Assembly (NCBI RefSeq): GCF_000341395.1 | Contig: NC_020304.1 | Coordinates: 2,940,001-2,972,000, forward strand | DNA: 32,000 nt | Direction: 5' to 3' | From: Desulfocapsa sulfexigens DSM 10523 | GTDB lineage: Bacteria > Desulfobacterota > Desulfobulbia > Desulfobulbales > Desulfocapsaceae | Shown: positions 1-21,930 of the stretch, piece by piece | How positions within the stretch are numbered: the stretch's first letter is position 1 | Layout: each line of letters opens with the position of its first letter | Program-made: the position numbers and the translations under genes | The notes under the pieces: generated by a model | Told to the model about the DNA's origin: nothing | The model's input: only the letters and a program-made list of their open reading frames with translations | Databases searched by the model: none

Positions 1-1187
1 GTCAGTTCCATAAGAGTCTTGATACCCATGATAACAACCAGAACACCAAGCCACTCTTTATAGGCAGTCATGGAGACATATTGGGTCACATATGTACCTA
101 ACCAGATGGAACCGATAAAAATACCTGCACCAAAAGAAAGACCAACCGGCCAGGCAACACGTTTCTCAACCACGGCAAAACGGTAAAAGGAACCAAGTGG
201 AGAGAACAGGGTAAGGGCGATATTTGATGGACGAAGAACGTTGGCAGCATTGATACCTACGGGACCAGCTGTCTGAACAAACAAAGCCTGGAAAGCACCC
301 ATCAACATACCACCGGCAGCACCGATCATTGAAAAATAGGTACCAACAAGAATAGCACCGATAACCACGACCAGAGGATTCATGTAACGATAGCCTTTCG
401 CAAGCCAGAAACCGTTCTTTTCTATGGTGTAAGATCCGCTTTTGGTGCCGTTTACATATACATCAAAACCGGTGTCAGGCGCGGTATGACGAAATGATTT
501 GAAAGAGGCTTTGAAATTTCCGGTGGCTTTGTCGAGATTTATGGATGTGCCCTTATCCCAGTAATTACCGCTTGAGGCATCGCCGATGACGGAGCGGGCA
601 AAAATGACAACTTTACCCTTTTTATTCCCTTCTTTAACAACGGTATCTATACCATATGAATTCTCGTGGCCCCACTTGAACATATTCCACTGTTCAGCGG
701 TTTTGATTGGACCAAGCATGTCTTTGGCGGCAACCTCATCAAAATTCTTTTTCAGCTTGAACATTGTGGTGTTGTAGAGTCCCTGGCCTTTTTTAAAGAG
801 AAAGGAGGGGCCACCAAATTTCTTATCAACATCACTACCAAAAGCTTCTCTGTTGGTTGTCAACATGTAGTAAAGAGGGGGAATCTCAGTATCCATTGTA
901 AAACCGGCCTTTTCACCATTCTGAGGCAGCTTCTTTTTTTCGTAGGTGCCGACGGATGATTGTCCGGCAAATTCTGTGACATTACCTTTGAACATTGCCT
1001 GCTGTGCAACAGCGATATAAAGGTCCTGGCCTGGCTCAATTTGTCCCTCTATGGTAATCGTGTCACCAGCCTTGTATTTATCTGCTGAGACTGTAGCACC
1101 GGCAAATGAACTGCTTTGCAAGGCTAAAAGCCAGATTGAAATCACCATCAAGGATATTGATAGTTGCTTGCATTTCATCATCTTCAT
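1..1187 (-). CDS. Partial membrane protein: signal peptide, ~270-aa periplasmic domain, then TauE/SafE-like transmembrane region. The 3' end runs off the window.
   Basis: It is absent from the ORF track because no stop lies in the window. The reverse strand reads from an ATG cluster at 1187/1181/1178, with AGGAG at 1191-1195, giving MKMMKCKQLSISLMVISIWLLALQSSSFA. A long soluble region follows, then hydrophobic helices containing IGAAGGMLMGAFQALF, which resembles the GxGGG motif of TauE/SafE anion exporters. Which ATG is used is uncertain. Confidence 0.55.
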   Translation of the reverse strand, partial: MKMMKCKQLSISLMVISIWLLALQSSSFAGATVSADKYKAGDTITIEGQIEPGQDLYIAVAQQAMFKGNVTEFAGQSSVGTYEKKKLPQNGEKAGFTMDTEIPPLYYMLTTNREAFGSDVDKKFGGPSFLFKKGQGLYNTTMFKLKKNFDEVAAKDMLGPIKTAEQWNMFKWGHENSYGIDTVVKEGNKKGKVVIFARSVIGDASSGNYWDKGTSINLDKATGNFKASFKSFRHTAPDTGFDVYVNGTKSGSYTIEKNGFWLAKGYRYMNPLVVVIGAILVGTYFSMIGAAGGMLMGAFQALFVQTAGPVGINAANVLRPSNIALTLFSPLGSFYRFAVVEKRVAWPVGLSFGAGIFIGSIWLGTYVTQYVSMTAYKEWLGVLVVIMGIKTLMEL

Positions 1188-1329: not shown

Positions 1330-1695
1330 TCATCTGGCGAGGTTGAGTACCTTTTCCACCTTCTCTTCAAGTTCATCACGATCAATAGGTTTCACACAAT
1401 ATTCATCGGCGCCCAGGCTGATAGCCTCACGGGCGGTTTCTACGGTCGGATATCCGGTAAGCATGATCACCCGAATGGAAGGATCAATTTTTTTTAGAAT
1501 TGCCAGGACCTCAACTCCATTCATCTTTTTTAACTTTATATCGAGAATGGCCAGGTCGATTTTGTGCATTTCAGCATGGGTAATGGCATCCTCTTCTTCT
1601 GTGAAGGTGTGAACTGTATGTCCTTTTTTACGAAGAATTTTTCCTATGAGCACTGTTGCATCGCGGATATCATCAAGGGTTATGATCTCTGCCAT
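1330..1695 (-). CDS. Stand-alone response regulator receiver (CheY-like, no output domain)
   Basis: 121 aa with an acidic pocket (TLDD), phospho-acceptor context LAILDIKL, T in MLTGY and K in CVKP. It sits 13 nt downstream of the histidine kinase. Confidence 0.9.
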   Translation of the reverse strand: MAEIITLDDIRDATVLIGKILRKKGHTVHTFTEEEDAITHAEMHKIDLAILDIKLKKMNGVEVLAILKKIDPSIRVIMLTGYPTVETAREAISLGADEYCVKPIDRDELEEKVEKVLNLAR

Positions 1696-1708: not shown

Positions 1709-3292
1709 TTACTGGTTCTTAGGTTTAAGGGTATCGCTATCCCTTTCGTCCGATATAGCTGGAAGGGTAACGTGAAAAGCTGTTCCGCCAGGGGATTTTC
1801 CGGTTTCGTTGTCAGTAACAGGAGACTCTATATCTATTCTTCCCTCGTGTTCCTGAATGATGCCGTAGGAGACTGAAAGACCAAGACCGGTACCTTTGCC
1901 AACGGGTTTGGTCGTGAAGAATGGGTCAAAAATAGAGGAAAGAATTTTTTCAGGTATACCGTGTCCGGTATCCATGACTGTTGCTATAACTTCTCTGCTG
2001 TCTTCACTGTTACGGGTCCTGATGTAGAGTTCACCACTCCCCTGGTCTTCCATTGCATGATGAGCATTATTGATAAAATTAATGAAAACCTGACGTAACT
2101 TTTCAGTGTCTCCGATGACACTGTTCAGGTTGGGGCTCAAATTTCTGTGGACCGTAATATGATCAATATTCAGTGAGTGTTCAGTTACGGCAAGTACATC
2201 GGTTACTATTTCATTGATGGAAATAATGTCCTTAGAGCTTTCTCCCTGTCTTGCAAATTTCAGAAGGTCGGCTACAATTTTCCGGCACGTTTTTGTTTGA
2301 CGTCCTATGACTTCCAGGCTTTCTCCTTCTTCGGTGTCTGGAGGAAAATCGTCCATCAGCAGTTGGGAATAGCCGAGTATGACGCCGAGAGGTGTGTTTA
2401 TTTCGTGGGCAACTCCCGCCGCCATCTGACCGATCGAAGCCATTTTTTCACTGGATGCCAGCTGGGCCATCATCGTCTTAACACGGGTAAGATCCTTGGC
2501 TATTCCTTCACAGCCAGTGAATTCACCGGCATCATTATGGATAGCGTTGGCAGAGAGAAGAACGTAGATGATACTGTCATCGGCTTTTTTGAATTCAACC
2601 TCAAGATCTTCGACAAAGCCACGAGTGAGAATTTCTTCAAAGTAGTTATCAAGATCGTCTTCATGAGAAAATATGTCCCATAGATTCAATGATGGCGGAT
2701 CATTGAATGGGTATCCAAGCATTTCAAGACCCGATGCATTCATATTGACCAGCCTGTTGTCTGAATCACAAAAATAAATCATGTCCTTTGAGTTGATGAA
2801 AAAGTTTCTGAATTTTTTCTCAGAGGCAGAGAGCTCTTTGGTACGGCTTTCGACCATTTCTTCAAGGTGACTATTCATCTCGTGGAGTTTCACTCCCGCC
2901 TGCTGAAGTTCACTATTGGCGGTTTTGAGACTTCTAGCCTTTTCCTCAATGGCACGATATCCTTCTATTCCTTTATGGTAATAGATGGTAACTGCCGCGA
3001 GAGAAGTCATAAGAAGTGTATTGAACCCTCCGGCCAGTGGAGCGAGAGTTCTCCACTGGTCATCGTTTCCGCTGATAAGTAAAACCTGTTTGACAAGATG
3101 TCCCATCGCTCTTGATACGGCAAATGCGGACAGTGTCATGCAGAAATAGAACAAGAACCCCCAGAGAAAGTTGTCCGGTTGTTCTTTTGTTAAAAGAAAA
3201 GCGTAGCGTAGGGAAAGAAATGAAAAAATAATTATGATAACGGAGCCGATCATGTCTGTGAAGTCGGCTGGAAACATGCTGAGACTACTCAT
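1709..3292 (-). CDS. Sensor histidine kinase (multi-TM N-terminus, coiled coil, PAS, HisKA, HATPase_c)
   Basis: H-box AHEINTPL, N-box [10 protein letters not shown]1 DTGHGI and G2 GTGLGLS. About four N-terminal hydrophobic helices have only short loops. A PAS-like segment lies between a coiled coil and the H-box. The start overlaps the upstream gene's stop (ATGA at 3289-3292). Confidence 0.92.
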
Positions 3293-3780
3293 GTCTTCAC
3301 CTTATCGCGGATTCCGAGGTAGAGAGAACGGAGACAGAGGTACAGACAGAACATCGCAGGAACGCTAAAAAGATGATCAAGTTTTGTGAAATAATATATC
3401 AGTTTCGTTGCGGTGATTGGGCCCGTAATTTTTGTAGACAAGTATCCGTTGTCTCGGGCAATGTCAGTTACCTCGATATGTTCGCTCATCCAGTGCCCGG
3501 TAAATGCAACGATATTCCAGAAAATCATGAAGATGCAGAACATCTGGAGGAAGCGCCATCCTTTGCTGGGAAATGAACTTCTGCGAATATCCCAGAAGAG
3601 GTAGCAGAGCGCGGCAAGAAAAAAGATGTGGGCCAGCTGATGCACATATATCCCTTCAGGGGCAGCATGGGATTGGAGTGCCTGGGCTTGATTCGGAAAA
3701 ATAAGAAATACTGTAAGGAGGAACAAACAGAATATCTTGTGTATTTTCCTGGAATGAATCATTTGACTCCTGTGCAACAA
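3289..3780 (-). CDS. Small integral membrane protein of unknown function, translationally coupled to the histidine kinase
   Basis: The track ORF begins at a TTG. The first ATG is at 3762 and is preceded by AGGAG (caggagtcaaATG), so 3289..3762 is the more likely CDS. It has a signal/anchor sequence and three further hydrophobic helices carrying His/Trp (HQLAHIFF, FTGHWMSEH). I recognise no family. Confidence 0.6.
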   Translation of the reverse strand: MLHRSQMIHSRKIHKIFCLFLLTVFLIFPNQAQALQSHAAPEGIYVHQLAHIFFLAALCYLFWDIRRSSFPSKGWRFLQMFCIFMIFWNIVAFTGHWMSEHIEVTDIARDNGYLSTKITGPITATKLIYYFTKLDHLFSVPAMFCLYLCLRSLYLGIRDKVKT

Positions 3781-3907
3781 TTTAGAGGCAGTATGGAGGA
3801 GCTGTTCTTGGCAGCAATGTCGTCTGGCCCATTGGCCAATACAGGATGAACAGTATTGTTTTCTGCAGCATCTATTTCAATTGCTGGCCCACATCTGTAG
3901 GAAGTGT

Positions 3908-3923
3908 TGCACATGTGATGCCA
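3908..3923 (-). promoter_or_regulatory. Candidate sigma-54 (-24/-12) promoter for the membrane protein-HK-RR operon
   Basis: The minus strand reads TGGCATCACATGTGCA. GG and GC have the canonical spacing of TGGCAC-N5-TTGCA, with three mismatches outside the GG/GC cores. It lies about 145 nt upstream of the ATG at 3762 in a 312-bp intergenic gap, directly downstream of an NtrC-type activator gene. Confidence 0.4.
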
Positions 3924-4042
3924 GAAATGAAATTCAATATGACAAAATAGAAATGAGCTGTTGTAACAGGGAATTGAGTTGGATTCGTTTTGGGAGTATT
4001 TGCCAGGGAAAAGCCGTTCGAAAGAGGAATGAGCGATTTTGG

Positions 4043-4079
4043 TGCAATATGAATGTTTCAGTGCAACAAATATATTGCA
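4043..4079. promoter_or_regulatory. Inverted repeat TGCAATAT-N21-ATATTGCA, a possible enhancer (UAS) for the sigma-54 promoter
   Basis: Perfect 8-bp arms at 4043-4050 and 4072-4079, with a third TGCAA between them. It is 120-170 bp upstream of the candidate -24/-12 element, a typical distance for EBP binding sites. Confidence 0.3.
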
Positions 4080-4092
4080 GGTGGTTAAGAAC

Positions 4093-5517
4093 TTACTTAT
4101 AGGTACTTGACTGGATAGCGTGTTTACGCATGAGGCGTTGAAATGCCTGACGTTCCATGCAACTGGCCCTGGCAGCAGCCGTGACGTTACCCTTACTGTT
4201 GTGCAGGCAGTTTTTTAGATAGGAAATTGTAAAATCTGAAATGATGGTCTGTTTTGCATCTTTATAGGGAAGGGAGTGAATATTTTGTGGAAGAGGAAGC
4301 TGGGAGGGATCATAGTTGCAGGTATTGTTACCATCGTCATTTTTTAAATCATGTACAGTCAGGATGTGGTCAGAAGCGAGCAGGACAGCTCTGTTGATAA
4401 TATTCTGAAATTCCCTGACATTTCCCTTCCATGGCTGTTGCATCATGCACTGCATGGCTTCTTTGCTGAAAGACAAATTTTCTCTTTCATACTCAATCGC
4501 ATACATCTTCAGAAAGTGCTGGGCCAGTAATGGGATGTCTTCCTTCATTTCACGTAAGGAGGGGAGTACAATGTTCATTACATTCAGTCTATAGTACAGA
4601 TCCTCTCTGAATTCTCCTTTCTCGATTTTTTCCTCAAGATTCTGATTCGTTGAAGCAAGAACCCGGACATCGACTTTGATGGTTTTGGTCTGGCCAAGAG
4701 GTTGGATCTCTTTTTCCTGAAGGACTCGGAGTAATTTTGTCTGGAGACTGACAGGAATATCGGCAATTTCATCGAGTAAGATAGTTGAGCCTTCGGCTTC
4801 AAGGAATAAACCATCTTTGTCGTTGTCTGCGCCGGTAAATGCACCTTTGCAGTAGCCAAAGAGTTCACTTTCCAGGATTTGCTCAGGAAGTGCAGGGCAA
4901 TTTACGGTGATCATCTTTCTGGCAGCACGCTTTGAGGAAAGGTGCACCGTACGTGCGGCGACTTCTTTACCTGTTCCAGATTCACCCCGAATAAGAAGTG
5001 TAGCATCGCTTTTCCCATAACGGATAAGCAGGTCAACCGCCTGTCGAAGGGGTTTTGACTTGCCAATAAATTGAGTTGAATTGCAATTATTAATGACCTG
5101 TTGCTGCAACCTTTGGTTTTCTTTCAGCAGTTTGGTGCGTTCCATGGCACGTTTGACAACTTGACTGATTTTGTCATTGTCAAAGGGTTTCTCGAAAAAG
5201 TCATAAGCTCCCTTTTTGAGTGCCTTGACGGCCATCTCAACGGTACCGTAGCCAGTCATGATAATAGTGGAAATAGTTGGGTCCGTAGTCTGTATAAATT
5301 CGAGAAGCTGCAGACCATCGGTTTCAGGCATAATAATATCAGTAAGGACGACGTCGGGCTTCCAGCCTTGTATCTGTGTCTGTGCCTCTGCGCCAGTATT
5401 GGCAAGTGATATGTCGCAGTCACATTTTTTAGCCAATACCTTTTTCAGGAGATTGAGAAGATCTCGTTCATCATCAACAATCAGAAGTCGCATCTTTTTC
5501 TCTGCTTCACCATTCAT
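4093..5517 (-). CDS. Sigma-54-dependent response regulator (NtrC family: REC + AAA+ + Fis-type HTH)
   Basis: REC domain (LLIVDDE, phospho-acceptor LTDIIMP), Walker A GESGTGKE, ESELFGY/GAFTGA loop, and a C-terminal HTH (GNVTAAARASCMERQAFQRLMRK). The alternative start M9 (MRLLIVDD) at 5493 is possible. Confidence 0.93.
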   Translation of the reverse strand: MNGEAEKKMRLLIVDDERDLLNLLKKVLAKKCDCDISLANTGAEAQTQIQGWKPDVVLTDIIMPETDGLQLLEFIQTTDPTISTIIMTGYGTVEMAVKALKKGAYDFFEKPFDNDKISQVVKRAMERTKLLKENQRLQQQVINNCNSTQFIGKSKPLRQAVDLLIRYGKSDATLLIRGESGTGKEVAARTVHLSSKRAARKMITVNCPALPEQILESELFGYCKGAFTGADNDKDGLFLEAEGSTILLDEIADIPVSLQTKLLRVLQEKEIQPLGQTKTIKVDVRVLASTNQNLEEKIEKGEFREDLYYRLNVMNIVLPSLREMKEDIPLLAQHFLKMYAIEYERENLSFSKEAMQCMMQQPWKGNVREFQNIINRAVLLASDHILTVHDLKNDDGNNTCNYDPSQLPLPQNIHSLPYKDAKQTIISDFTISYLKNCLHNSKGNVTAAARASCMERQAFQRLMRKHAIQSSTYK

Positions 5518-5520
5518 TGG

Positions 5521-6504
5521 CTATTTCTCTGCTACCTTGAGCATGGCCTGGAAGTAATGCTGAACAAAGCGACCGGATATGGTGTCGAGTATCGAGAAGG
5601 ATGGTATCTCCTCGGGCGGGAAGGACCCAGTCAAGGCAAAGAAGACATCTCGTGAAAGGGTGCTTATCATAGATGTTATTTTCTCAGTGTTTCTCTCATC
5701 TGTCAAGTTCCTGCAGTGAACAGGGCGTTCCCTGGCGATGAGAGAGCACGTTCCATTTTGTAGAAGAGGACAGGTGGTGAAAATTTTATCGTTGGTATAT
5801 TTTTGTGCCAGGGATGCAGCCTTATGGATAACGGCTTCACGAGCACTGCTTGTCAGTGAGAGGTTCATATTATGACTGACAAATACTGCTTCGATTAGTT
5901 GTAGTTCAAAGTATTCATGACAGCATGGTTCGTCTTTGATCCATTGCGCGTCTTCTTCATCACTCTGCCTGGCAAACTCTGAGACTATTGCCTGATATTC
6001 TACAAAAAAAGGAGTTAAATCTATGGTACTGTCGTGCTGTATACTGGCTTCACGGGCGATGAGCTTTCCCTGTTTCTTGCCGTACTTCTTGAGGAGCTTC
6101 CATTGACTGTAATTTGTTGGTGTGGCCCGCGTTGTTTGTAAGGTTTTCTCAGCAAGTTTCAAACCCAGACCACGCCTGAGCAGATAGGCCGAGACAAAAG
6201 TTCCTGTGCGACCAATACCATGACGGCAGTGAACCAGAACCTTTTTTTTTAGATAAATTGACTCATCAAACCAGTGCAGAGCTTTTTCCATTGCCTCCAT
6301 TTGGGGAGCACATTCGTCGTGGACAGGGAGGTAATATACCTCAAACCCTGCCTGCTCTTCAAGCTCGTGAAGGTCACTGAATTCAGCACAGAGATTGACA
6401 ATGGCATTGATTCCCTGTTCTTTTATGGAATCCAGTTCTTCATAGGACATAGGGGCATGTCCAACTGCCAGTTGATTTGTTATCCAGGTAAGTTCATAAG
6501 ACAT
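5521..6504 (-). CDS. Dual-specificity (Cys-based) phosphatase fused to a Cys-rich YkgJ/UPF0153-like domain
   Basis: The N-terminal ~150 aa carry the CX5R P-loop VHCRHGIGRTGT. The C-terminal ~170 aa contain CCHEY and CPLLQNGTCSLIARERPVHCRN, which resemble the putative Zn/Fe-chelating CxxCxxCC family. The stop is 3 nt from the EBP start. There is no Shine-Dalgarno sequence upstream; CTCCTCCT precedes the ATG. Confidence 0.8.
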   Translation of the reverse strand: MSYELTWITNQLAVGHAPMSYEELDSIKEQGINAIVNLCAEFSDLHELEEQAGFEVYYLPVHDECAPQMEAMEKALHWFDESIYLKKKVLVHCRHGIGRTGTFVSAYLLRRGLGLKLAEKTLQTTRATPTNYSQWKLLKKYGKKQGKLIAREASIQHDSTIDLTPFFVEYQAIVSEFARQSDEEDAQWIKDEPCCHEYFELQLIEAVFVSHNMNLSLTSSAREAVIHKAASLAQKYTNDKIFTTCPLLQNGTCSLIARERPVHCRNLTDERNTEKITSMISTLSRDVFFALTGSFPPEEIPSFSILDTISGRFVQHYFQAMLKVAEK

Positions 6505-6530
6505 AGGAGGAGCCCTGATGGTCTACTGAG

Positions 6531-8981
6531 TTACAGCACCCGAAAGAATTTATCGATTTGTTGTTCTACCATTTCAGTATCCTTGAGGCGCATATCCATC
6601 TGTTTGGTTACTCCCAGAAGCTTTCCCAAAGACTCTATGCGTTCCATAAGACTGTCAGCTGAAATACCGCTTATTCTGGCGTCGAGAAGATCTCCTTTGA
6701 TTGTAACATCAAAACCAAGGCGGCTAAGTACTTTGTCCAGAAAAAGGATTCGAAGCTCGCGTCCTTCAAATTCACCACCGCCTCCGGCAAAACGCAATGT
6801 GCAATAACTGGTGGTGGAATCTGGTTCACAAAGAGCATCGATAACAGTGAAATGATATCCAAAACGGATGTTCATATTCAAGTAATCTTTTCCAAGAACG
6901 GCATAACTTGCAGAATCGGAATTTGATTGAAAGGCAAAGGCATCACTCATTGCCATGCGGTCATATCCCTTCCAGTCATAATAGGTCTGTTCGCCCCAAC
7001 TGATATCAGAATGATTAAAACCACGCCATAACGCCTGAAAGGGAGATGAACGTATCAGGTCCACTGTTATTATCTGGAGTGCGGAGGCATGTTTATCAAG
7101 TCCTTCATCCACATCTACAATAAACACTTCGAAGGGAAGCTGGGTCTGAAGTTTCTTTTTCCCACCCTTGATGGTGCTGCAGCGATCCCCTATGGAAAAC
7201 ATGCTCTGGACCGCCATTTCATGGGAAAAACGGATAATGTCATGCAATGAGCGACAGGATTCCGGCGCAAAATCTTTTGACTGTGGATCGAGTAGCTTTA
7301 AAGGTGTTATAAAATCAAGGACAGTTCGCAGCTTACTGAAAAATGGGAGATCTTTATCTCTTTTATAAACAGGGGAAGGCTTTACTTTAGGAGAGTGTGC
7401 TCCTGAGTAGACCGTGCGTGTATCTGCCACAAGAGTGATAACCTCGCCATGTTGAATGCGGGAAATGTCTTTTCCAACGCCAAGGAGGAGTGGGACTCCA
7501 AACTCTCTGCAGACGGTGGCGAAATGCCCGGCAGCACTCCCGAGTTCAGCAATAACTCCATCGACCCGATGGAGAACTCGCACATAGCTTGGAAGGGTTT
7601 CATGGAGCACCAGAATGTGGCCCGGTTCTATTGTGTCCAGAGGATTTTCTGCATCAGGAACCCATGCCCTGGCAGAGGCAAATCCTGATGAGGCCATTAC
7701 ACCACCATGAAAGAGTAACGATTCTTTATTGATAGACAGCTCAGAAGGTATGTTGTTTTCAGATTTGTAAAGATGTAATTCCCGAGTTTGAAGGAAAACA
7801 AAGGTTCCATCACCTTGCAGTGCCCATTCGATATCCTGAGGCCTGTCGAAATGGCGTTCAATGCGAAGAGCCATTTTACCGAGATCCTCTATCTGGGTCG
7901 TGGTGAGGAGTTTTTGTTTTGAGCTCTGCGCAGCAACTGGCAGCGTTGAGTTTTTATCAACTGTAAAAACCTCGGGTATTACAGTACCGCTGACAACTGC
8001 ATCACCAAGGCCAGAGGTGGCGTGGATATACAGTTTGTCTTCTTGAGTTCCTGAGGGATTGATGGTGTAAACAACACCTGCCGTGACTGCATCAACCATG
8101 GTCAGTATCATGACCGCCATGGGAGTTTCTTCGTCGCTGAGGCCGCAGTTAATTCTGTAGGCAAGTGCCTCGGGGCTGTATTTACTGCAAAGTACATCAA
8201 GGTAGGCATCAAGGAGTTTGTCTGTTTCCACGTTGAGATAGCTGGAGTATTGGCCGGCAAATGAGCATTGCCCATCCTCGCTGAGAGCACTGCTTCGGAC
8301 AGCGAAGCGCATGTGTGAGCCTTTTTCGGTCTGAAGTCTTTTCCCGGCATATTTAAGAGCCTCGATGATTTCGGGGGGGATTTCTGCTCCCTTGATCAGG
8401 TCTATAATAGCAACAGAAATTTCAGACAAAAGCCGGGTGGATGTGATGTCTGTTTTAGCGAGTAATGCATTAATGGCCGGTCGCAGATCATTATATTCGA
8501 GAAGATAGGAAAAACAGTTTGTTGTGAGGACATATCCTGAAGGAATAACAAGGTTGAGTTGCTGGTGTAGCTCTGCCAGAGTACTGCTTTTTGCACCAGC
8601 AAGTTGTGTGGTGAGTGCCTCATCATGTAATGGAAGGATAAAAGGTTTGCCGAAATGTAACTCAGGGGGGGCGAAAAAAAAGCGACAATAAAAGTTAAAC
8701 TTATTGAAATAGGCGGGCAGGTCTATATAGGAACCGGGTGCCATACGTTGAAGGTTGATAACCATACCTTCAACGTTTTCAGCAAGGGATTCATATTTCA
8801 GGGAAATTTTACAAAAATCTTCTTTCTTTCCCTGGTAGTAGAGGCTTTCAAGGTCTGCCATGATTTCATGGCATTGACTGTCAAAGGCCAGCAAATTCTG
8901 GAAAGCCTCATAGGTTGTTCGCAACACAGCACCGGGTGCGAATACCCTGTATGTCCAATACTTGAAAAGATTGGTCAACAT
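6531..8981 (-). CDS. PEP-utilising-enzyme-family dikinase-like protein (ATP-grasp PPDK_N domain + swivel His domain + unrecognised N- and C-terminal domains)
   Basis: LAGAKSSTLAELHQQL...IPSGYVLTT, FAVRSSALSEDGQCSFAGQYSSYLNV and DIEWA match the nucleotide-binding domain of PEP synthase/PPDK. GSAAGHFATVCREFGVPLLLGV matches the mobile phospho-histidine domain, with the His retained. I do not recognise the last ~270 aa as the PEP/pyruvate TIM barrel. Confidence 0.8.
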   Translation of the reverse strand: MLTNLFKYWTYRVFAPGAVLRTTYEAFQNLLAFDSQCHEIMADLESLYYQGKKEDFCKISLKYESLAENVEGMVINLQRMAPGSYIDLPAYFNKFNFYCRFFFAPPELHFGKPFILPLHDEALTTQLAGAKSSTLAELHQQLNLVIPSGYVLTTNCFSYLLEYNDLRPAINALLAKTDITSTRLLSEISVAIIDLIKGAEIPPEIIEALKYAGKRLQTEKGSHMRFAVRSSALSEDGQCSFAGQYSSYLNVETDKLLDAYLDVLCSKYSPEALAYRINCGLSDEETPMAVMILTMVDAVTAGVVYTINPSGTQEDKLYIHATSGLGDAVVSGTVIPEVFTVDKNSTLPVAAQSSKQKLLTTTQIEDLGKMALRIERHFDRPQDIEWALQGDGTFVFLQTRELHLYKSENNIPSELSINKESLLFHGGVMASSGFASARAWVPDAENPLDTIEPGHILVLHETLPSYVRVLHRVDGVIAELGSAAGHFATVCREFGVPLLLGVGKDISRIQHGEVITLVADTRTVYSGAHSPKVKPSPVYKRDKDLPFFSKLRTVLDFITPLKLLDPQSKDFAPESCRSLHDIIRFSHEMAVQSMFSIGDRCSTIKGGKKKLQTQLPFEVFIVDVDEGLDKHASALQIITVDLIRSSPFQALWRGFNHSDISWGEQTYYDWKGYDRMAMSDAFAFQSNSDSASYAVLGKDYLNMNIRFGYHFTVIDALCEPDSTTSYCTLRFAGGGGEFEGRELRILFLDKVLSRLGFDVTIKGDLLDARISGISADSLMERIESLGKLLGVTKQMDMRLKDTEMVEQQIDKFFRVL

Positions 8982-9094: not shown

Positions 9095-11701
9095 TTACTC
9101 GACGGTTTCTGGGCTGACTGCTTTTTCCGTTTCCTGCGGCGTGGCTGTTTGAATTTTTCTGAGTTCCACTCTGCGATTTTTTGAACGACCGGTGTCTGTT
9201 GTGTTGTCAGCGATCGGCTCTGCAGCACCATATCCTTTCGCCTGGAGGGAGTCAGCAGAAACACCTTTGGATACCAGGTAATTCAGTACGGATTGGGCAC
9301 GCTGGGTGGAGAGTTGCAGGTTTGATTCTTCCTCACCAATTGAATCGGTATGGCCAGCTATTTCCATCTGGAGATCAGAATTGATCTGAAGAATGGCTGC
9401 GGTTGTATCAAGTGCATGATGAGCGTCTTCAGTGAGTTCTGCCGTTCCAAATTGAAAGCTTATTCCTTCAAGAACAACCGTGGTCTGTTCTTCAGTACAT
9501 CCGGCATTATCAATTGCTTCACCGGAATTGCTGCCGGGACAGAGATCGAGCCTGTCAACCAGGCCATCACCATCCGAGTCTTTCTCACACCCCTGTTCAT
9601 CGACTTTGGCCCCTTTAATAGTGTCCGGACAGGCGTCCTCAGCATCTGATATGCCATCGTTATCACTATCGGTGGTCATAAGCTTGAGTTTGTCCCGTTC
9701 AGCAGTCAGTGCCGAGAGACTTGTTTGCAGTGCGGTGACTTCGGCAAGGCTTTTCGTCAGATTTTCCTGATTGGCGTTGAAAGAGTCTTCCAGCTCTTTG
9801 TTTGTATCTTTAAGGGCTGTCACTTGTTCCTTAATGGATTCAATTAATGCTGTTTGCTCATCGGCTGCAGCTTTTGCAGTGGCGGCTTCCTCAGTCAGTC
9901 TTTCAATCTCTTGTTGTTGCACAGTACTAGTGTCTGTCTCATTGCTTTGTTGAGCTTTTGCCTCATCGAGGGCGGTCTGGAGAGAGGCAAGTTGTTCATT
10001 ATTCGTGCTAAGTTGATCGGTAAGATTTTGAATAGTTGCGTCTTTTTGTGAGACAAGAGCAGTATGTTCTTTAATCTGGCTATCGGAAAGGGCCTTAGCG
10101 GCGGTAAGATCTGCGACGAGTTGTGCGATCTTCTGTTCCTTTTCGGCACCATCGTTGGCCGTAATTTGGGAGGTTAATTGTTGTATGGTTGCTTCTTTTT
10201 CAGCTAGAGTAGAAGAAATTTGATCAATTTCTTTCTGTAAATCGGTTGAGTGCTTTACAGCTGTTTCCGTCGCAGCAGTTTGTTGATCAAGAAGACTCTG
10301 CAGAGACTCGACCTGCTGGGCATGCTGTTTGTCTGTATCTGTTTGTTGAGTACTCAGGGTCTCAATTTCTTCACGGGCCTGGGAAAGAGCAAGCTGGACT
10401 TCCCCAAGAGCAGATTTTGCAGGTTCAAGCTCTTTGCTGAGTGAATCGTTTACCGCTTGCAGTTCAGCAAGAGTTGTTTCAGAGTGGGTGCTGTTCTCAG
10501 TGAGGAGCGCATTTTGTTCACTCGCTTCTTTCAGTTGTTGTTCAAGGGAACTGAGCTTTTCTGTCAACTGAGCAGTGACTTCCTGATTTTGTATGATGAT
10601 ATTTTCAATTTCCTGATCTTTGTCAGTCAAAAGGATCTGCAACTCGGTCAGTGTTTGGCCAGCTTCTTCTTTCATGTGGTGCAATTTGTTAAGCTCATCG
10701 CTTAAAAACTGATTGTCTGTCTGCAGCAGTAGCAGCTTTTCCTGGTTTTCAGCATTGCTGTTTTCGCTTACCTGCAGGTCATTGAGCAAATCCTGGAGGT
10801 GTGCACTCTGCTCATTGATTTGTGACTGTAAAGTGGTGTTACTGAGTTCAAGTTCCTGGATTTTGGTAATAGCTGCGGCGAGTCTACCATCTTCAGCCGG
10901 GGTGGGCTGTTGATTCATCTTTTCAATAAGGGCACTAATTTCAGCTAGAGCGGCGTCTGTGGGCCTCTGAGTGGTTGCTGATGCTCCGGGCTGACCAGTG
11001 GTTCCGGACAGTTGTTCAAGTTGTTCCTGGAGGTCAACAACCTGTTGGGTTTTACGTGCCAGTTCGTCAAGCACCAGGGATAAATTCATTGCCTTGGTGT
11101 TGTTGGCACTTCTTGAATGCTTTATTGTTTCTGTACTTGCTTCAAGCTGTTCTTTATATAGTGCAATGGCCTCATCTTTTTCCTTAAGGGCGGCGGCCAG
11201 CATTTTGAGTCGTGCGTCTTTGTGCTCAAGGGAATTCTGTGATGTCTTGAGATGCCTGGTTATCTCATGGATCTCTGCTTCGAGGGCACCTTTTTCTTTT
11301 TCTGCACTGGCCAGTAGTTTCTGTTGTTCATCAAATTGTTTTTGAAGGGTGGTGAATTCGACCATGCGTTTACTGGCATCATCAAGTTGTTTGTTCAGCT
11401 GTTCGTGAAGGTCTTTTACCTGCTGCTGGTATAATGCTTTCTCTTTTTCGATGGCAGTTATAGTATTCGAAAGCTCGGGGATAAGGTCATTTTTCTTTCG
11501 GGCATTTTCGGCAGAAAGAGTTGTTTCTTTAAGTGTCTGCTGTATCTCACTGATCAGCTGTTCCTTTTTTTTGACGGTTTGCTGGATGTCTTGTTTATCA
11601 AGTGCCAGTTGAGCACTTTTCTGCATGTAAAAAATAAGAAAAAGAGAAATGATAAGTATGGTGAGTATACTGCCGTAGACGATTTTTGCTGTTGACCCCA
11701 T
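9095..11701 (-). CDS. Membrane-anchored long coiled-coil protein with thrombospondin type-3 Ca-binding repeats and a C-terminal OmpA-like peptidoglycan-binding domain
   Basis: N-terminal TM (IVYGSILTILIISLFLIFY) and ~650 aa of Q/E/L/K/T-rich heptad-like sequence. TSP3 motifs DSDNDGISDAEDACPD and DSDGDGLVDRLDLCP are present. The OmpA_C signature includes GHTDSIG, LSTQRAQSV and NRRVEL. Confidence 0.85.
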   Translation of the reverse strand: MGSTAKIVYGSILTILIISLFLIFYMQKSAQLALDKQDIQQTVKKKEQLISEIQQTLKETTLSAENARKKNDLIPELSNTITAIEKEKALYQQQVKDLHEQLNKQLDDASKRMVEFTTLQKQFDEQQKLLASAEKEKGALEAEIHEITRHLKTSQNSLEHKDARLKMLAAALKEKDEAIALYKEQLEASTETIKHSRSANNTKAMNLSLVLDELARKTQQVVDLQEQLEQLSGTTGQPGASATTQRPTDAALAEISALIEKMNQQPTPAEDGRLAAAITKIQELELSNTTLQSQINEQSAHLQDLLNDLQVSENSNAENQEKLLLLQTDNQFLSDELNKLHHMKEEAGQTLTELQILLTDKDQEIENIIIQNQEVTAQLTEKLSSLEQQLKEASEQNALLTENSTHSETTLAELQAVNDSLSKELEPAKSALGEVQLALSQAREEIETLSTQQTDTDKQHAQQVESLQSLLDQQTAATETAVKHSTDLQKEIDQISSTLAEKEATIQQLTSQITANDGAEKEQKIAQLVADLTAAKALSDSQIKEHTALVSQKDATIQNLTDQLSTNNEQLASLQTALDEAKAQQSNETDTSTVQQQEIERLTEEAATAKAAADEQTALIESIKEQVTALKDTNKELEDSFNANQENLTKSLAEVTALQTSLSALTAERDKLKLMTTDSDNDGISDAEDACPDTIKGAKVDEQGCEKDSDGDGLVDRLDLCPGSNSGEAIDNAGCTEEQTTVVLEGISFQFGTAELTEDAHHALDTTAAILQINSDLQMEIAGHTDSIGEEESNLQLSTQRAQSVLNYLVSKGVSADSLQAKGYGAAEPIADNTTDTGRSKNRRVELRKIQTATPQETEKAVSPETVE

Positions 11702-11926: not shown

Positions 11927-12382
11927 CTAATTTACGGTGGGAGCAGTTCCTAAAACTTTTGCATTGATTTTTTCTTTCTGGCTATCACTTGGTTCAGGTT
12001 TGCTCCAGTGGATAAAGGCCTCAGTTACCCGCATATAGTCACCATCATCTTTTTTACATAAGTCACAGATGCTTTCTGCCTGGTCGCGGTATATGATGAG
12101 CTTAGAGGCTGGTTCACCATCTTTTGCCACTGCAGCCATCTTTTTACAGCCGCATGCCAGGCGAACTATAACCACACCGATGCCGTCGGGACTTCCCTCA
12201 AGGATTCCTTCAATCATGGCTTCTTCGTTTTTTTCGGCAACCAGCGTTTTAGTTTTTGTTTTCCCAGTGGATTTATTTTTTTTTGCCATTTTCTTGTCTC
12301 TCTGCATTTCTATTATTAATGAATTGTTAGGAGTTTGTACTATAAGACGGATTGATTTCAGGTCAATGTTTTTCGGGTTCAT
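11927..12382 (-). CDS. Small hypothetical protein with a Lys-rich N-terminus and CxC...CxxC cysteines
   Basis: Open frame of 151 aa. The internal starts M26 (12307) and M32 (12289, MAKKNKSTGKTKTK) are at least as plausible as 12382, and none has a strong RBS. The Cys pattern LACGCKK ... SICDLCKK suggests a small metal-binding fold. No family recognised. Confidence 0.45.
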   Translation of the reverse strand: MNPKNIDLKSIRLIVQTPNNSLIIEMQRDKKMAKKNKSTGKTKTKTLVAEKNEEAMIEGILEGSPDGIGVVIVRLACGCKKMAAVAKDGEPASKLIIYRDQAESICDLCKKDDGDYMRVTEAFIHWSKPEPSDSQKEKINAKVLGTAPTVN

Positions 12383-12803: not shown

Positions 12804-12846
12804 CAAGCCCATTCTCCCGTCAGGGAGGATGGGCTTGTCTTATTTA
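12804..12846 (+). terminator. Rho-independent terminator after the ferredoxin gene
   Basis: CAAGCCCATTCTCCC (12804-12818), loop GTCA, GGGAGGATGGGCTTG (12823-12837). This gives a 15-bp stem with one G-U pair, followed by TCTTATTTA. Confidence 0.6.
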
Positions 12847-12864
12847 TGGGGTAGACAAATTCAA

Positions 12865-13329
12865 ATGGCTGGGAAACTTTCCAAACTCAAACCAGGTGCA
12901 TCCCGATCGGTACATCTTCTGGTAGCAGCAACACTGTGGACAGTTGTCGGTATCTCTCTGATGTCCAGGGGGATTGTGTGGCTGAATGGGCTTGGACAAC
13001 TGTGGATTGTACTCCCTGGTCTGCTGCTGGGTTCTCTTAAATCCCTCTTTATGCTGGATCGTTCAGCCATAAAAAGTATAAATCGCATAATCGCCACCCG
13101 TGATGGCCGATGTATCGGTGGTGTATATTCAGTTAAAACCTGGCTGCTGGTGTTGCTCATGATGGCAGCAGGCTGTCTCATGCGTAATTCGAGTCTGCCA
13201 AAAGAGTTGCTTGGACTGTTTTATGTCTCCATCGGCTGGGGCCTGTTGTTTTCATCGAGAACTGCCTGGGTTGCCTGGAAAAAAGGTGACGAAGTTCCTC
13301 TAAAGAAAAACACGGGTATGGGCGTGTAG
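12865..13329 (+). CDS. Hypothetical integral membrane protein
   Basis: The track ORF starts at 12829, inside the terminator stem, so the ATG at 12865 (MAGKLSKLKPG...) is more likely. It has four predicted hydrophobic helices. No family recognised. Confidence 0.55.
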   Translation: MAGKLSKLKPGASRSVHLLVAATLWTVVGISLMSRGIVWLNGLGQLWIVLPGLLLGSLKSLFMLDRSAIKSINRIIATRDGRCIGGVYSVKTWLLVLLMMAAGCLMRNSSLPKELLGLFYVSIGWGLLFSSRTAWVAWKKGDEVPLKKNTGMGV

Positions 13330-20262: not shown

Positions 20263-21930
20263 ATGATGCGAGTGAATGTCCTGACTGTTGCCCTGGCAGC
20301 CTCCCTGGCCGTGCTCTTGATTTTACCGTTGGCGAGCTTTTTCTTTTTCGTGCCGGCCTATCAATTTATGTTGACCAGCATCACCGAGGAAGAATCCATC
20401 CGGGTCGCCAGTCATCTTGCCACTTCCATTGCCACCGAGGGGACGCCCATCAACCGCAACTCTCTACAGCCTCATAAACATAGAGAAATAAGGGCGCTTG
20501 TTGAGGATTTTAAATTAAGAAAGTTACGGATTTTTTCCGATACCGGCGAAATCGTATTTTCCACGGATGCTTGGGAAATCGGGACTCGCACCACCAGTGA
20601 GTATTTTTTCGAGGTAGTGGCCAAGGGTAAATCCTTGACCAAACTGGTGCATAAGGATACGCCGTCCATGGACGGGCAGGTGCAGCCGATTGATGTGGTG
20701 GAGACCTATGTGCCCATCATGGAAGCGGGCAGGTTCATGGGGGCCTTTGAAATCTATTACTCCATCACCATGCGTAGGGAAAAGTACAACTGGGTGGTCA
20801 GGAGGTACTTGTACACGGTATTTGGAGCGACCTTGGTCCTACTTGTGGCGGTTGGGCTTACCATCCACAAGGCTCGTAGTCATCTGGAGAAACGGAATCG
20901 AGCCGAAAAGGCGTTGCAGAATGCCCATGATGAACTGGAGGTTCGGGTTCGGGACAGGACCGCTGAGCTCAAGGAGAGTAACGAGGCTCTGGTTGCCGAG
21001 AACAAGATGCGTAAGGCCTTTGAGGCGGAGCTAAGATTGGCCGCCAAGGTGATTGATAACATCATTGAGGGCATCTGCGTTACCGATACCAGTGGCACCA
21101 TTGAAAGGGTCAATCGAGGGTTTAGTGATATCACCGGCTATGAGGCCAAGGAGGTGGTGGGCAATAATCCCCGTATCCTCAAGTCAAACCGCCACTCCCC
21201 TGAATTTTACGAGGCGATGTGGAAATCGCTGGGCGCCACTGGTACGTGGCATGGCGAGATCTGGAACCGACGCAAAAGCGGTGAGATCTATCAGGAATGG
21301 TTGTCAATTTCATCAATCAGAAATGAGGATAACCGGATAACCCACTATGTTGGCGTCTTTTATGAACTCAAGAGCCTGCTGGAAAAACAGGAACATCTGT
21401 CCCGCAAGGCCTTTCACGATGCCTTGACCAATCTCCCCAACCGCGAACTCTTCTTTGACCGTCTCGATGTTGCCTTGTCCAAAGCTAAACGCCAGGAGCA
21501 GCAGCTGGCCGTCATTTTTATTGATCTTGATGATTTTAAGCCGATCAATGATACCTTGGGCCATCACTTCGGCGATGTTTTTCTACAGGGCGTGGCAGAA
21601 CGCCTTGTCCTCTGTTGCCGTGAGGAGGACACCGTGGCCCGCTTGGGGGGGGATGAGTTTGTCATGCTCCTTACTAACGTGGGTGGCTTGCCGGATGTGG
21701 TGGCGGTGGTGGAACGGCTTTTCTCACATCTGGGCGTGCCGGTAAGCCATCAGGGCAAGGAGATGACAATCAAGGCCAGTATCGGCATCGCCCTGTATCC
21801 GCAAGACGGAGACGAGGTGGAAGTGCTTCTGAAGAAGGCGGATGCCGCCATGTATGTCGCCAAAAACACGGGCAAGAACAACTATCAGTTTTATCAATTA
21901 TCAGGGCTTGTCATTGGTGATGACAAATGA
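20263..21930 (+). CDS. Membrane-bound PAS-GGDEF diguanylate cyclase
   Basis: N-terminal TM, a ~150-aa periplasmic region, a second TM, a coiled coil, then PAS (VTDTSGTIERVNRGFSDITGY). The GGDEF domain has an intact RLGGDEF active site and an RxxD I-site (REED) five residues upstream. No EAL or HD-GYP domain is present. Confidence 0.93.
   Translation: MMRVNVLTVALAASLAVLLILPLASFFFFVPAYQFMLTSITEEESIRVASHLATSIATEGTPINRNSLQPHKHREIRALVEDFKLRKLRIFSDTGEIVFSTDAWEIGTRTTSEYFFEVVAKGKSLTKLVHKDTPSMDGQVQPIDVVETYVPIMEAGRFMGAFEIYYSITMRREKYNWVVRRYLYTVFGATLVLLVAVGLTIHKARSHLEKRNRAEKALQNAHDELEVRVRDRTAELKESNEALVAENKMRKAFEAELRLAAKVIDNIIEGICVTDTSGTIERVNRGFSDITGYEAKEVVGNNPRILKSNRHSPEFYEAMWKSLGATGTWHGEIWNRRKSGEIYQEWLSISSIRNEDNRITHYVGVFYELKSLLEKQEHLSRKAFHDALTNLPNRELFFDRLDVALSKAKRQEQQLAVIFIDLDDFKPINDTLGHHFGDVFLQGVAERLVLCCREEDTVARLGGDEFVMLLTNVGGLPDVVAVVERLFSHLGVPVSHQGKEMTIKASIGIALYPQDGDEVEVLLKKADAAMYVAKNTGKNNYQFYQLSGLVIGDDK

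Follow-up and report, generated by a model that had tools for sequence, protein, structure and literature searches.

Genes at the Locus

The DNA analysed here is a stretch of 32,000 nucleotides (nt) from Desulfocapsa sulfexigens DSM 10523 (NC_020304.1, positions 2,940,001 to 2,972,000 of the forward strand), referred to below as the window, and all coordinates are positions within it. Its minus strand carries three tightly packed genes that encode, in this order, an atypical swivel-histidine dikinase, a dual-specificity phosphatase (DSP) fused to a cysteine-containing domain (Cys4), and an NtrC-type sigma-54 activator (Table 1). According to the coordinates of the open reading frames (ORFs), 26 nt separate the dikinase and DSP genes and 3 nt the DSP and activator genes, which is exactly what had been reported in an earlier reading made from the letters without database searches (the sequence-only reading), and the motifs named in it were all found in the translations: RFAVRSSALSEDGQCSFAGQ, QDIEWA, and GSAAGHFATVCREFGVPLL in the dikinase and HCRHGIGRTG in the phosphatase. 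What that reading missed is that the trio belongs to a larger conserved module, probably a set of seven genes for signalling and transport of which it makes up the first part. The set goes on with genes for a small membrane protein, then a histidine kinase, a regulator that is a receiver only, and finally a TauE/SafE-family permease, and reaches position 1 of the window. The permease gene does not appear in the ORF listing, as the latter takes in no ORFs running off the window.

Table 1. Features of the module in the window, in minus-strand order, followed by the upstream neighbour (aa, amino acids).
Feature	Position (nt)	Strand	Size or residues	Basis and remarks
Atypical swivel-His dikinase	6531..8981	-	816 aa	Pfam, NCBIfam, homologues
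Novel N-domain	8607-8981	-	aa 1-125	No Pfam family
ATP-grasp PPDK_N (PF01326)	7758-8606	-	aa 126-408	Pfam E 1.5e-68
Phospho-His swivel domain, PEP-utilizers (PF00391)	7422-7631	-	aa 451-520	Pfam E 3e-15
Swivel histidine	7524-7526	-	His486	Catalytic His by homology
Novel C-terminal domain	6534-7394	-	aa 530-816 (287 aa)	No Pfam family
DSP phosphatase with Cys4 domain	5521..6504	-	327 aa	Pfam, residue conservation
DSP domain	6076-6486	-	aa 7-143	Pfam
Catalytic cysteine	6226-6228	-	Cys93	Invariant
Helical Cys4 domain, weakly YkgJ/CxxCxxCC-like	5524-6051	-	aa 152-327	Invariant Cys
NtrC-type sigma-54 enhancer-binding response regulator	4093..5517	-	474 aa	Pfam, NCBIfam
Candidate upstream activator site (TTGCAC.GAAAC, invariant, with TGCA repeats on its flanks)	4044..4078	-		Alignment of 7 orthologous intergenic regions; just downstream of activator stop codon
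Sigma-54 -24/-12 promoter element TGGCATcacatGTGCA	3908..3923	-		~130 nt upstream of membrane-protein gene, after activator gene; use by sigma-54 predicted
Small integral membrane protein	3289..3780	-	163 aa	Translation; position kept in most related loci
Membrane-anchored PAS histidine kinase	1709..3292	-		Domain matches; gene order kept
Receiver-only response regulator	1330..1695	-	121 aa	Pfam; order kept
TauE/SafE-family permease gene, 5' part	1..1187	-	395 codons	Translation; TauE match; continues past window start
Coiled-coil/TSP3-repeat/OmpA-like peptidoglycan-binding protein	9095..11701	-	868 aa	113 nt upstream of dikinase gene

A Swivel-Histidine Dikinase with Two Novel Domains

Pfam searches matched in the dikinase the ATP-grasp and swivel domains of phosphoenolpyruvate (PEP) synthase and pyruvate phosphate dikinase (PPDK), as had been proposed from the sequence, with the catalytic histidine kept: His486 was present in 100% of 116 full-length representatives of the family and was also invariant in 26 homologues. 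The two ends of the protein, described beforehand as unfamiliar and unlike a TIM barrel, proved to be so, since residues 1–125 and 530–816 gave no Pfam match even at E ≤ 10, the C-terminal 287 aa (C-domain) showed no sequence relative in the PDB, and no match to the PEP/pyruvate TIM barrel (PF02896) was detected by Pfam in any part of the protein, the C-domain included. An AlphaFold2 model of the C-domain, with a predicted local distance difference test score (pLDDT) of 75 and a predicted template modelling score (pTM) of 0.77, showed an alpha+beta arrangement consisting of a four-strand beta-meander followed by alpha-beta-beta-alpha, with no (beta/alpha)8 barrel, and Foldseek found no significant fold match to it in the PDB (best E 0.02, template modelling (TM) score 0.22). 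Weak Foldseek matches of this model and of that of the phosphatase Cys4 domain to YbjN/type III secretion system-chaperone-like proteins and to arginine kinase (E ≥ 0.02, TM score ≤ 0.22) were discarded as uninformative.

An exhaustive HMMER search with the C-domain alone as the query revealed a family of at least 1116 cluster representatives at 50% identity, in which this domain is nearly always located at around residues 540–830 of proteins of 800–870 aa. More than 120 full-length homologues were at least 48% identical over 100% of the length, among them a paralogue encoded in the same genome (P0098). In the 116 full-length representatives, C-domain residues H580, D581, R584, H587, E588, H710, R744, D796, G733, and G734 were conserved at 99–100%, and D623, D715, D764, Y700, Y709, and W662 at 93% or more. 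In four of the loci studied (L124, L144, L159, and L167, all of clade 4), a second, shorter dikinase-like ORF (~600–670 aa, at about positions 3300–5290) was found ~1 kb upstream of the full-length one.

The public annotation of the protein is phosphoenolpyruvate synthase/pyruvate phosphate dikinase, and its best NCBIfam match is indeed PpsA, so we considered the possibility that the gene is an ordinary ppsA lying beside unrelated genes. The scores are, however, only 260 bits against a cut-off of 598 (NF005057) and 252 against 740 (TIGR01418), with 176 against 999 for rifampicin phosphotransferase (RPH), and the PpsA, RPH, and PigC models cover just the first two domains (150–260 bits against cut-offs of 598–1300). 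Together with the absence of a PF02896 match, the non-barrel model of the C-domain, and a gene adjacency kept in more than 130 loci (see below), this leaves the ppsA alternative with practically no credence, and the missing barrel refutes an ordinary PEP synthase. Because of this missing barrel, the NCBIfam scores below the cut-offs, and the conservation of His486 and of the C-domain residues, the protein is best described as a re-targeted swivel-histidine enzyme with a putative family-specific acceptor domain and not as a ppsA product, in agreement with the earlier suggestion that this chassis had been turned to a non-pyruvate substrate.

The Phosphatase and Its Cys4 Domain

The fusion of a CX5R phosphatase to a YkgJ-like cysteine cluster had been proposed for the second gene, and its first half was clearly recovered: the protein scored 49.2 bits for DSPc (PF00782, cut-off 33.5) and 69.5 for Tc-R-P (cut-off 27), and the alignment of homologues showed that the HC(R/K)HGxGRTG motif is kept and that Cys93, Arg99, and the general-acid Asp63 are invariant. 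Thus, the catalytic residues of both enzymes, the swivel histidine and the CX5R cysteine, are maintained among their homologues. The closest PDB relatives of residues 22–143 were small archaeal protein tyrosine phosphatases (PTPs), namely ShufPTP (9e9l), Tk-PTP (5z5b), and SsoPTP (2i6i), with E-values from 1e-16 to 3e-18, followed by DUSPs and PTEN.

As for the YkgJ part of the proposal, the similarity appears real but is weak. PF03692 (CxxCxxCC) gave a weak match in 12 out of 21 homologues, with a best E-value of 0.0033, and the window phosphatase itself had no Pfam match in this region; of the CxxCxxCC motif that gives the family its name, just CC or xC is left, and the second half, CPxL..G.C......RP..CR, is kept. 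Four cysteines of the domain (C195, C245, C253, and C264) are invariant in the homologue alignment, and its model (pLDDT 79) is mostly helical and found no fold match in the PDB with Foldseek.

Dikinase–Phosphatase Pairing in Other Genomes

To follow the pair beyond this genome, two samples of loci were used. In the GTDB species genomes, at least 557 stretches with a C-domain coding sequence were found, and the best 80 of them, all from Desulfobulbales, were examined; counts on genome loci given below refer to this sample. The second sample comprised 80 metagenome loci of clade 4, whose C-domains show 40–50% identity. Adjacency was counted only in loci with room to show the next gene (74 genome loci and 68 metagenome loci). 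A DSP gene was found directly after the dikinase gene in 70 of the 74 genome loci and in 63 of the 68 metagenome loci, so the adjacency noticed in the window holds outside this genome. Moreover, dikinase, DSP, and Cys4 domain were found fused in one chain in P0344 (1205 aa) and P0297 (1252 aa). The DSP is therefore a near-obligate partner of the dikinase, as seen from this adjacency and the occasional fusion. The Cys4 domain, for which the sequence-only reading had put forward a hypothetical redox gating of the erase step, is dispensable in 19 of the 63 clade-4 partners, which are bare DSPs of ~150 aa, and is present in the other 44. Loci with other arrangements were also seen: L006, L011, and L013 showed no DSP after the dikinase gene and a divergent activator/kinase pair upstream, with the reservation that the L013 sequence stops at the dikinase gene, so that no DSP could be seen there, and in L023 and L042 the activator gene follows the dikinase gene directly.

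A different picture was obtained for clade 3, whose dikinases are longer (~1020–1100 aa) and carry a C-terminal lectin/ConA-like domain (GH59_C, Laminin_G_3). Two types of partner were found in it. The first one is an ArsC(pI258)-like protein with the fold of low-molecular-weight PTPs and with CX5R and CX6C motifs, which is fused to the dikinase in P0345 and which in L084 adjoins the dikinase and is itself fused to an N-terminal thioredoxin-like domain resembling the DF-family (seleno)proteins. The second type is a sulfurtransferase-type rhodanese. Both contexts come from only 3–4 loci. ChrB, ChrA, and MFS genes were also detected near clade-3 dikinases. Two of the ArsC-like partners (L084:787-1491 and L083:2636-3300) score well below the ArsC cut-offs and therefore are probably not arsenate reductases.

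The lectin-like domain of these relatives bears on another alternative, according to which the dikinase would phosphorylate a glucan or other polymer and be opposed by a laforin/SEX4-like phosphatase. The logic of a dikinase paired with a DSP does resemble that of glucan, water dikinase (GWD) and SEX4, an analogy drawn in the sequence-only reading. However, Pfam detected no carbohydrate-binding module in either window protein, the best PDB relatives of the DSP are the small archaeal PTPs, with no glucan phosphatase among the 60 best matches listed for the DSP domain, and the neighbouring genes encode sensors, permeases, and a molybdoenzyme instead of glycogen enzymes. The analogy thus found no specific support, and we regard a polymer substrate as very unlikely.

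The Remaining Genes of the Module

The complete order dikinase, DSP, activator, membrane protein, kinase, and receiver was kept in 36 of 50 genome loci. The membrane-protein and kinase genes share 4 nt at the start of the latter. The membrane protein, which belongs to no known family, has a signal-like N-terminus and about three transmembrane segments, no Pfam match, and no similarity to the 196-aa hypothetical protein encoded in the Pseudodesulfovibrio cluster described below. The histidine kinase consists of 3–4 N-terminal transmembrane segments followed by PAS, HisKA, and HATPase_c domains. The receiver-only regulator is the most conserved protein of the module, with ~80% identity where the dikinase C-domain shows ~50%. 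In L081, L082, L086, and L168, a receiver-only gene immediately precedes the dikinase gene, and in L087 the order is dikinase, kinase, receiver.

The permease gene starts 143 nt downstream of the receiver gene and encodes a signal peptide and a ~260-aa periplasmic N-domain, the equivalent protein of the paralogous module being annotated as DUF8269 plus TauE. The fragment present in the window, which stops at the window edge, scored 26 bits for TauE/SafE (PF01925; E 8e-6), below the cut-off of 32.6 owing to its truncation, and its full-length orthologue L001:16214-17920, from a locus whose dikinase C-domain is 89% identical to that of the window, reached 104.8 bits. A TauE gene follows the receiver gene directly in all seven loci of clade A, the closest one, and permeases of this family recur in Desulfobulbales and Desulfovibrionaceae loci.

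Within Desulfocapsa genomes, all six genes of the module occur as a duplicate set (L173; L001 with L018; L009 with L016), the dikinases of the two copies being ~50% identical. In the genome studied here, the paralogous module (L173, with dikinase P0098) contains genes for dikinase, DSP, activator, membrane protein, kinase, receiver, a TorD-fused molybdoenzyme, a GAF kinase, and the DUF8269-TauE protein. More than 30 loci encode a homologous molybdoenzyme downstream. The family that it matches best is the thiosulfate reductase PhsA (531 bits, below the cut-off of 694), and the fact that this match starts at model position 40 suggests that it has no Tat signal.

Histidine kinases and receiver-only regulators are also the recurrent neighbours in the DSP-bearing clades 4 and 5. 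In one arrangement seen with distant dikinases, the genes of a PhnD-like binding protein, a PAS kinase, and a receiver precede a dikinase::DSP fusion; in another, chemotaxis-type genes are interposed in such a set; and in a third, the dikinase gene shows translational coupling to genes for a dCache kinase and a receiver. Overall, kinase and receiver-only regulator co-cluster with the dikinase in two of the three main clades, and anion permeases do so in all three.

The Activator and a Conserved Predicted Sigma-54 Promoter

The third gene of the trio encodes a protein with REC, Sigma54_activat, and AAA lid domains according to Pfam, a GAFTGA motif, and a C-terminal helix-turn-helix region, with scores of 380–408 bits for AtoC/NtrC-like NCBIfam models, below their equivalog cut-offs. 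It had been suggested that the dikinase and phosphatase would be co-expressed with, and possibly feed into, this NtrC-type regulator. An activator gene follows the DSP gene in 51 of 62 Desulfobulbales loci but is absent from the Desulfovibrionaceae versions of the cluster, so it is a lineage-specific addition, and the conserved promoter was found elsewhere than at the dikinase gene.

This predicted promoter is a -24/-12 element in the intergenic region between the activator and membrane-protein genes. A GG-N10-GC element was present in 40 of 45 orthologous intergenic regions, compared with 4 of 72 regions upstream of the dikinase gene, and its GG and GC columns were invariant in the alignment of seven orthologous intergenic regions. 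As the element is conserved there, we infer that the conserved target of the activator is the sensor/permease operon, that is, the membrane-protein, kinase, and receiver genes, and not the dikinase gene. The same alignment revealed the block at 4044–4078 that we propose as a candidate activator site (Table 1). A further conserved block, CAGATGTGGGCCAGCA, located at 3881–3896 of the minus strand, immediately downstream of the -12 element, was kept in most of the seven aligned clade-A relatives. Window-wide, the number of matches to the sigma-54 pattern was at chance (18, against 17 expected), and only the conserved site was retained. Scans for sigma-70 promoters and terminators showed no excess over shuffled controls, and their results were not used.

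Relation to the Desulfovibrio "Nitrate Cluster"

A related locus type has been described genetically by Korte et al. (2014; PMC4001038) as the "nitrate cluster" (DVU0251–DVU0245 and Dde_0597–Dde_0605), which contains, according to Table 3 of that work, a TauE-like permease, a hypothetical protein, a PtxB-like binding protein, a PAS kinase, a receiver-only regulator, a dikinase, and a DSP. Its "pyruvate phosphate dikinase" shows only PPDK_N/ATP-grasp and mobile-domain signatures (PMC4001038). Transposon mutants in the permease, receiver, binding-protein, and dikinase genes were resistant to 100–150 mM nitrate but not to nitrite, the phosphatase mutant of D. vulgaris stayed nitrate-sensitive (pooled fitness -6.04), and G20 mutants were mildly sick on thiosulfate, the latter according to unpublished data quoted in the paper, whose authors speculated about a leaky transporter for thiosulfate (PMC4001038). 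The genes were left as "poorly annotated", and the published work is genetic only (PMC4001038). Our literature searches for follow-up work on DVU0245–0251 or on dikinase plus DSP systems found only this publication.

In Pseudodesulfovibrio piezophilus, the gene order is TauE, a hypothetical gene, an opposite-strand gene, PhnD-like binding protein, PAS kinase, receiver, dikinase, and DSP, with a PhsA-like molybdoenzyme gene adjoining that of TauE, and its dikinase and phosphatase are 37% and 42% identical, respectively, to the window proteins from end to end. Apart from the interposed opposite-strand gene, the set from TauE to DSP agrees in content and order with the published table. The same gene order was found in L149, whose dikinase is identical to a Desulfovibrio sp. 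protein and has Pseudodesulfovibrio and Maridesulfovibrio proteins as its nearest relatives. Five components of the cluster, namely the dikinase without a barrel, the DSP, the receiver-only regulator, the PAS kinase, and the TauE-family permease (its 5' part), are likewise encoded in the window. The window module is thus probably the Desulfobulbales counterpart of the nitrate cluster, an equivalence based on the Pseudodesulfovibrio orthologue and on the published table of domains and gene order.

Proposed Function and Alternatives

The explanation that we favour, to which we give somewhat better than even chances as a whole, is that the dikinase and the cysteine phosphatase run a phosphorylation cycle within a module for the sensing and transport of sulfur anions. 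The dikinase would split ATP to AMP and inorganic phosphate (Pi), with the beta-phosphate riding on His486 to an acceptor bound by the C-domain, and the phosphatase would remove or further process the phosphate on this acceptor. The membrane histidine kinase would control the cycle through the receiver-only regulator, which has itself no output domain, and the output would concern the TauE-family anion permease and, in relatives, also the cytoplasmic PhsA-like molybdoenzyme; these two proteins suggest that a sulfur oxyanion, for instance thiosulfate, is taken up or reduced. As the Desulfovibrionaceae modules have no DNA-binding regulator, the output has to be post-translational in them, and in the lineage of D. 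sulfexigens the NtrC-type activator would add transcriptional control at the sigma-54 promoter of the membrane-protein/kinase/receiver(/permease) operon.

Several observations weigh against this explanation. The phosphotransfer, the AMP plus Pi stoichiometry, and the acceptor are inferred for every member of the family, and the C-domain model is moderately confident, with pLDDT values of 55–68 in its first 80 residues. The link to DVU0246/Dde_0604 is indirect, through Desulfovibrionaceae orthologues and not through direct alignment, and no PhnD/PtxB-like binding protein is encoded in the window. Furthermore, the clade-3 contexts contain no two-component (kinase/receiver) genes, so control by a receiver cannot be universal; for the same reason, the receiver domain was ruled out as a universal phospho-acceptor. 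Finally, the phosphatase mutant of G20 was nitrate-resistant (+2.08), that is, with the same sign as the dikinase mutant (PMC4001038), and a sequential pathway fits these phenotypes as well as an antagonistic pair does. Of the write/erase pair proposed in the sequence-only reading, the partnership stands, with its near-obligate adjacency, the fusions, and the opposite nitrate phenotypes in D. vulgaris, but with the G20 mutant a simple eraser role for the phosphatase is not established.

The acceptor could be either a protein of the module or a small anion, and we weight both about equally. According to the first possibility, the dikinase would place a phosphate mark on the module's permease, kinase, or molybdoenzyme, which the DSP would erase. 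The similarity of the DSP to protein tyrosine and dual-specificity phosphatases, the post-translational output demanded by modules without a DNA-binding regulator, the opposite phenotypes of the D. vulgaris dikinase and phosphatase mutants, and the fusion of both enzymes in some proteins all point this way. On the other hand, we know of no swivel-histidine dikinase that phosphorylates a protein hydroxyl, clade 3 does without kinase and receiver genes and has partners of thiol-redox type, and the strongly conserved polar pocket of the C-domain suggests a small ligand; a protein switch is thus a tentative proposal that falls well short of even chances.

The second possibility, held just as tentatively and drawn by analogy with selenide, water dikinase, is a pathway that activates small anions in place of a write/erase switch. 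An oxyanion or sulfur species brought into the cell, such as thiosulfate or sulfite, would be the substrate of the dikinase, the Cys-P-loop partner (DSP, ArsC-like protein, or rhodanese) would attack or process the resulting phospho-anhydride, and nitrate would be toxic as a substrate mimic. Such a pathway would account for the non-homologous replacement of the partner by the ArsC(pI258)-like CX5R plus CX6C protein, in one case with a thioredoxin-like DF domain, or by the sulfurtransferase-type rhodanese, and it is consistent with the recurrence nearby of the anion transporters TauE, ChrA, MFS, and SulP, together with ChrB, and of PhsA-like molybdoenzymes. The PhnD/PtxB-type oxyanion-binding protein that serves as sensor partner in clade 4, the dense constellation of invariant His, Arg, and Asp residues in the C-domain, typical of a small-molecule site, and the shared phenotype of the G20 phosphatase and dikinase mutants (PMC4001038) point in the same direction. 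However, phospho-oxyanion chemistry of this kind is not known for this enzyme chassis, the DSP keeps its general-acid Asp and is nearest to protein-type PTPs, the rhodanese and ArsC-like contexts come from those 3–4 loci only, and the phosphatase mutant of D. vulgaris behaved oppositely to the dikinase mutant. A more specific version would give the dikinase a function analogous to that of selenide, water dikinase, in which it activates an inorganic oxyanion, of sulfur or another element, at the expense of ATP, with DSP-Cys4, ArsC-like, and rhodanese proteins as interchangeable partners that process the phospho-anion. This version appears rather unlikely to us at present.

Other Features of the Window

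The 868-aa protein encoded upstream of the dikinase gene shows an N-terminal transmembrane segment, ~650 aa of Q/E/L-rich coiled coil, thrombospondin type-3 repeats, and an OmpA-like peptidoglycan-binding domain. Its gene was found upstream mainly in clade-A loci (L001, L003, L005, L007, L008, L009, and L010), whereas L004 has it at another place and L042 on the opposite strand. As a neighbour it is thus specific to the lineage, and its membership in the module is uncertain. Two ORFs without Pfam match, at 11927–12382 (minus strand, 151 aa) and 12829–13329 (plus strand, 166 aa), lie between the module and alr/argS. Downstream of secA, the plus strand encodes a PAS-GGDEF diguanylate cyclase (20263–21930), an NHL-repeat protein (22309–23787), and a radical-SAM/SPASM enzyme (24221–25321), apparently unrelated to the module. 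PADLOC defence models gave no match for the dikinase, the phosphatase, or the 163-aa membrane protein, and Rfam and tRNA scans of the window found nothing.

Significance

The dikinase belongs to a large family, with at least 1116 clusters at 50% identity, whose members uniformly carry the wrong annotation of PEP synthase. This family combines two domains without a known fold with a near-obligate cysteine-enzyme partner. Its probable link to the nitrate cluster would connect it to the sole experimentally defined nitrate-resistance locus of sulfate reducers; nitrate resistance matters for keeping oil-field souring under control. This type of locus was already flagged genetically in 2014, with its biochemical basis left open (PMC4001038). 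The identity of the acceptor would reveal either a new output mode for receiver-only regulators, through an ATP-to-AMP dikinase/phosphatase switch, or new dissimilatory sulfur chemistry. If true, oxyanion activation would represent a previously unrecognised step of thiosulfate or sulfite handling in sulfate reducers and sulfur disproportionators, and it would explain nitrate toxicity as substrate mimicry. D. sulfexigens, which disproportionates thiosulfate, sulfite, and sulfur, carries two copies of the whole module.

Comparison with Known Systems

The dikinase shares with PpsA and PPDK the ATP-grasp domain followed by the swivel phospho-histidine domain, in the same order and with the catalytic histidine kept, but it lacks the TIM barrel and has a novel alpha+beta C-domain and an extra N-domain of 125 aa. 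The re-use of this chassis with a new acceptor domain is also seen in RPH, PigC/RedH, and phenylphosphate synthase, with partial NCBIfam matches of 150–176 bits, far below the cut-offs, and for these enzymes no pairing with a phosphatase or two-component system is known. In RPH and PigC, the histidine domain is C-terminal and the acceptor domain central, whereas in the window dikinase the histidine domain is central and ~290 aa follow it. GWD, opposed by the DSP-family phosphatases SEX4, LSF2, or laforin, offers the same combination of a swivel-histidine dikinase and a DSP. In GWD, the nucleotide domain is C-terminal to the histidine domain; in the window protein, in contrast, the ATP-grasp domain precedes it, carbohydrate-binding modules are absent, and the context is one of bacterial signalling and transport.

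As for the phosphatase, it has in common with archaeal and bacterial DSP-type PTPs the HCX5R(S/T)G motif and the general-acid Asp, and differs from them in being fused to the helical Cys4 domain and genetically locked to the dikinase. The Cys4 domain resembles the YkgJ/CxxCxxCC family (PF03692) in the CPxL..G.C......RP..CR half and the CC pair, but has no CxxCxxCC motif and keeps only four invariant cysteines.

Finally, the module as a whole is most like the nitrate cluster, with which it shares the TauE permease, the PAS kinase, the receiver-only regulator, a dikinase recognised only by PPDK_N and PEP-utilizer matches, and the DSP. It differs from it in the addition of the sigma-54 activator, the sigma-54 promoter, and the small membrane protein, in a kinase embedded in the membrane where the cluster has a PhnD/PtxB-like binding protein and an sCache kinase, and in a TauE protein that carries a periplasmic N-domain.

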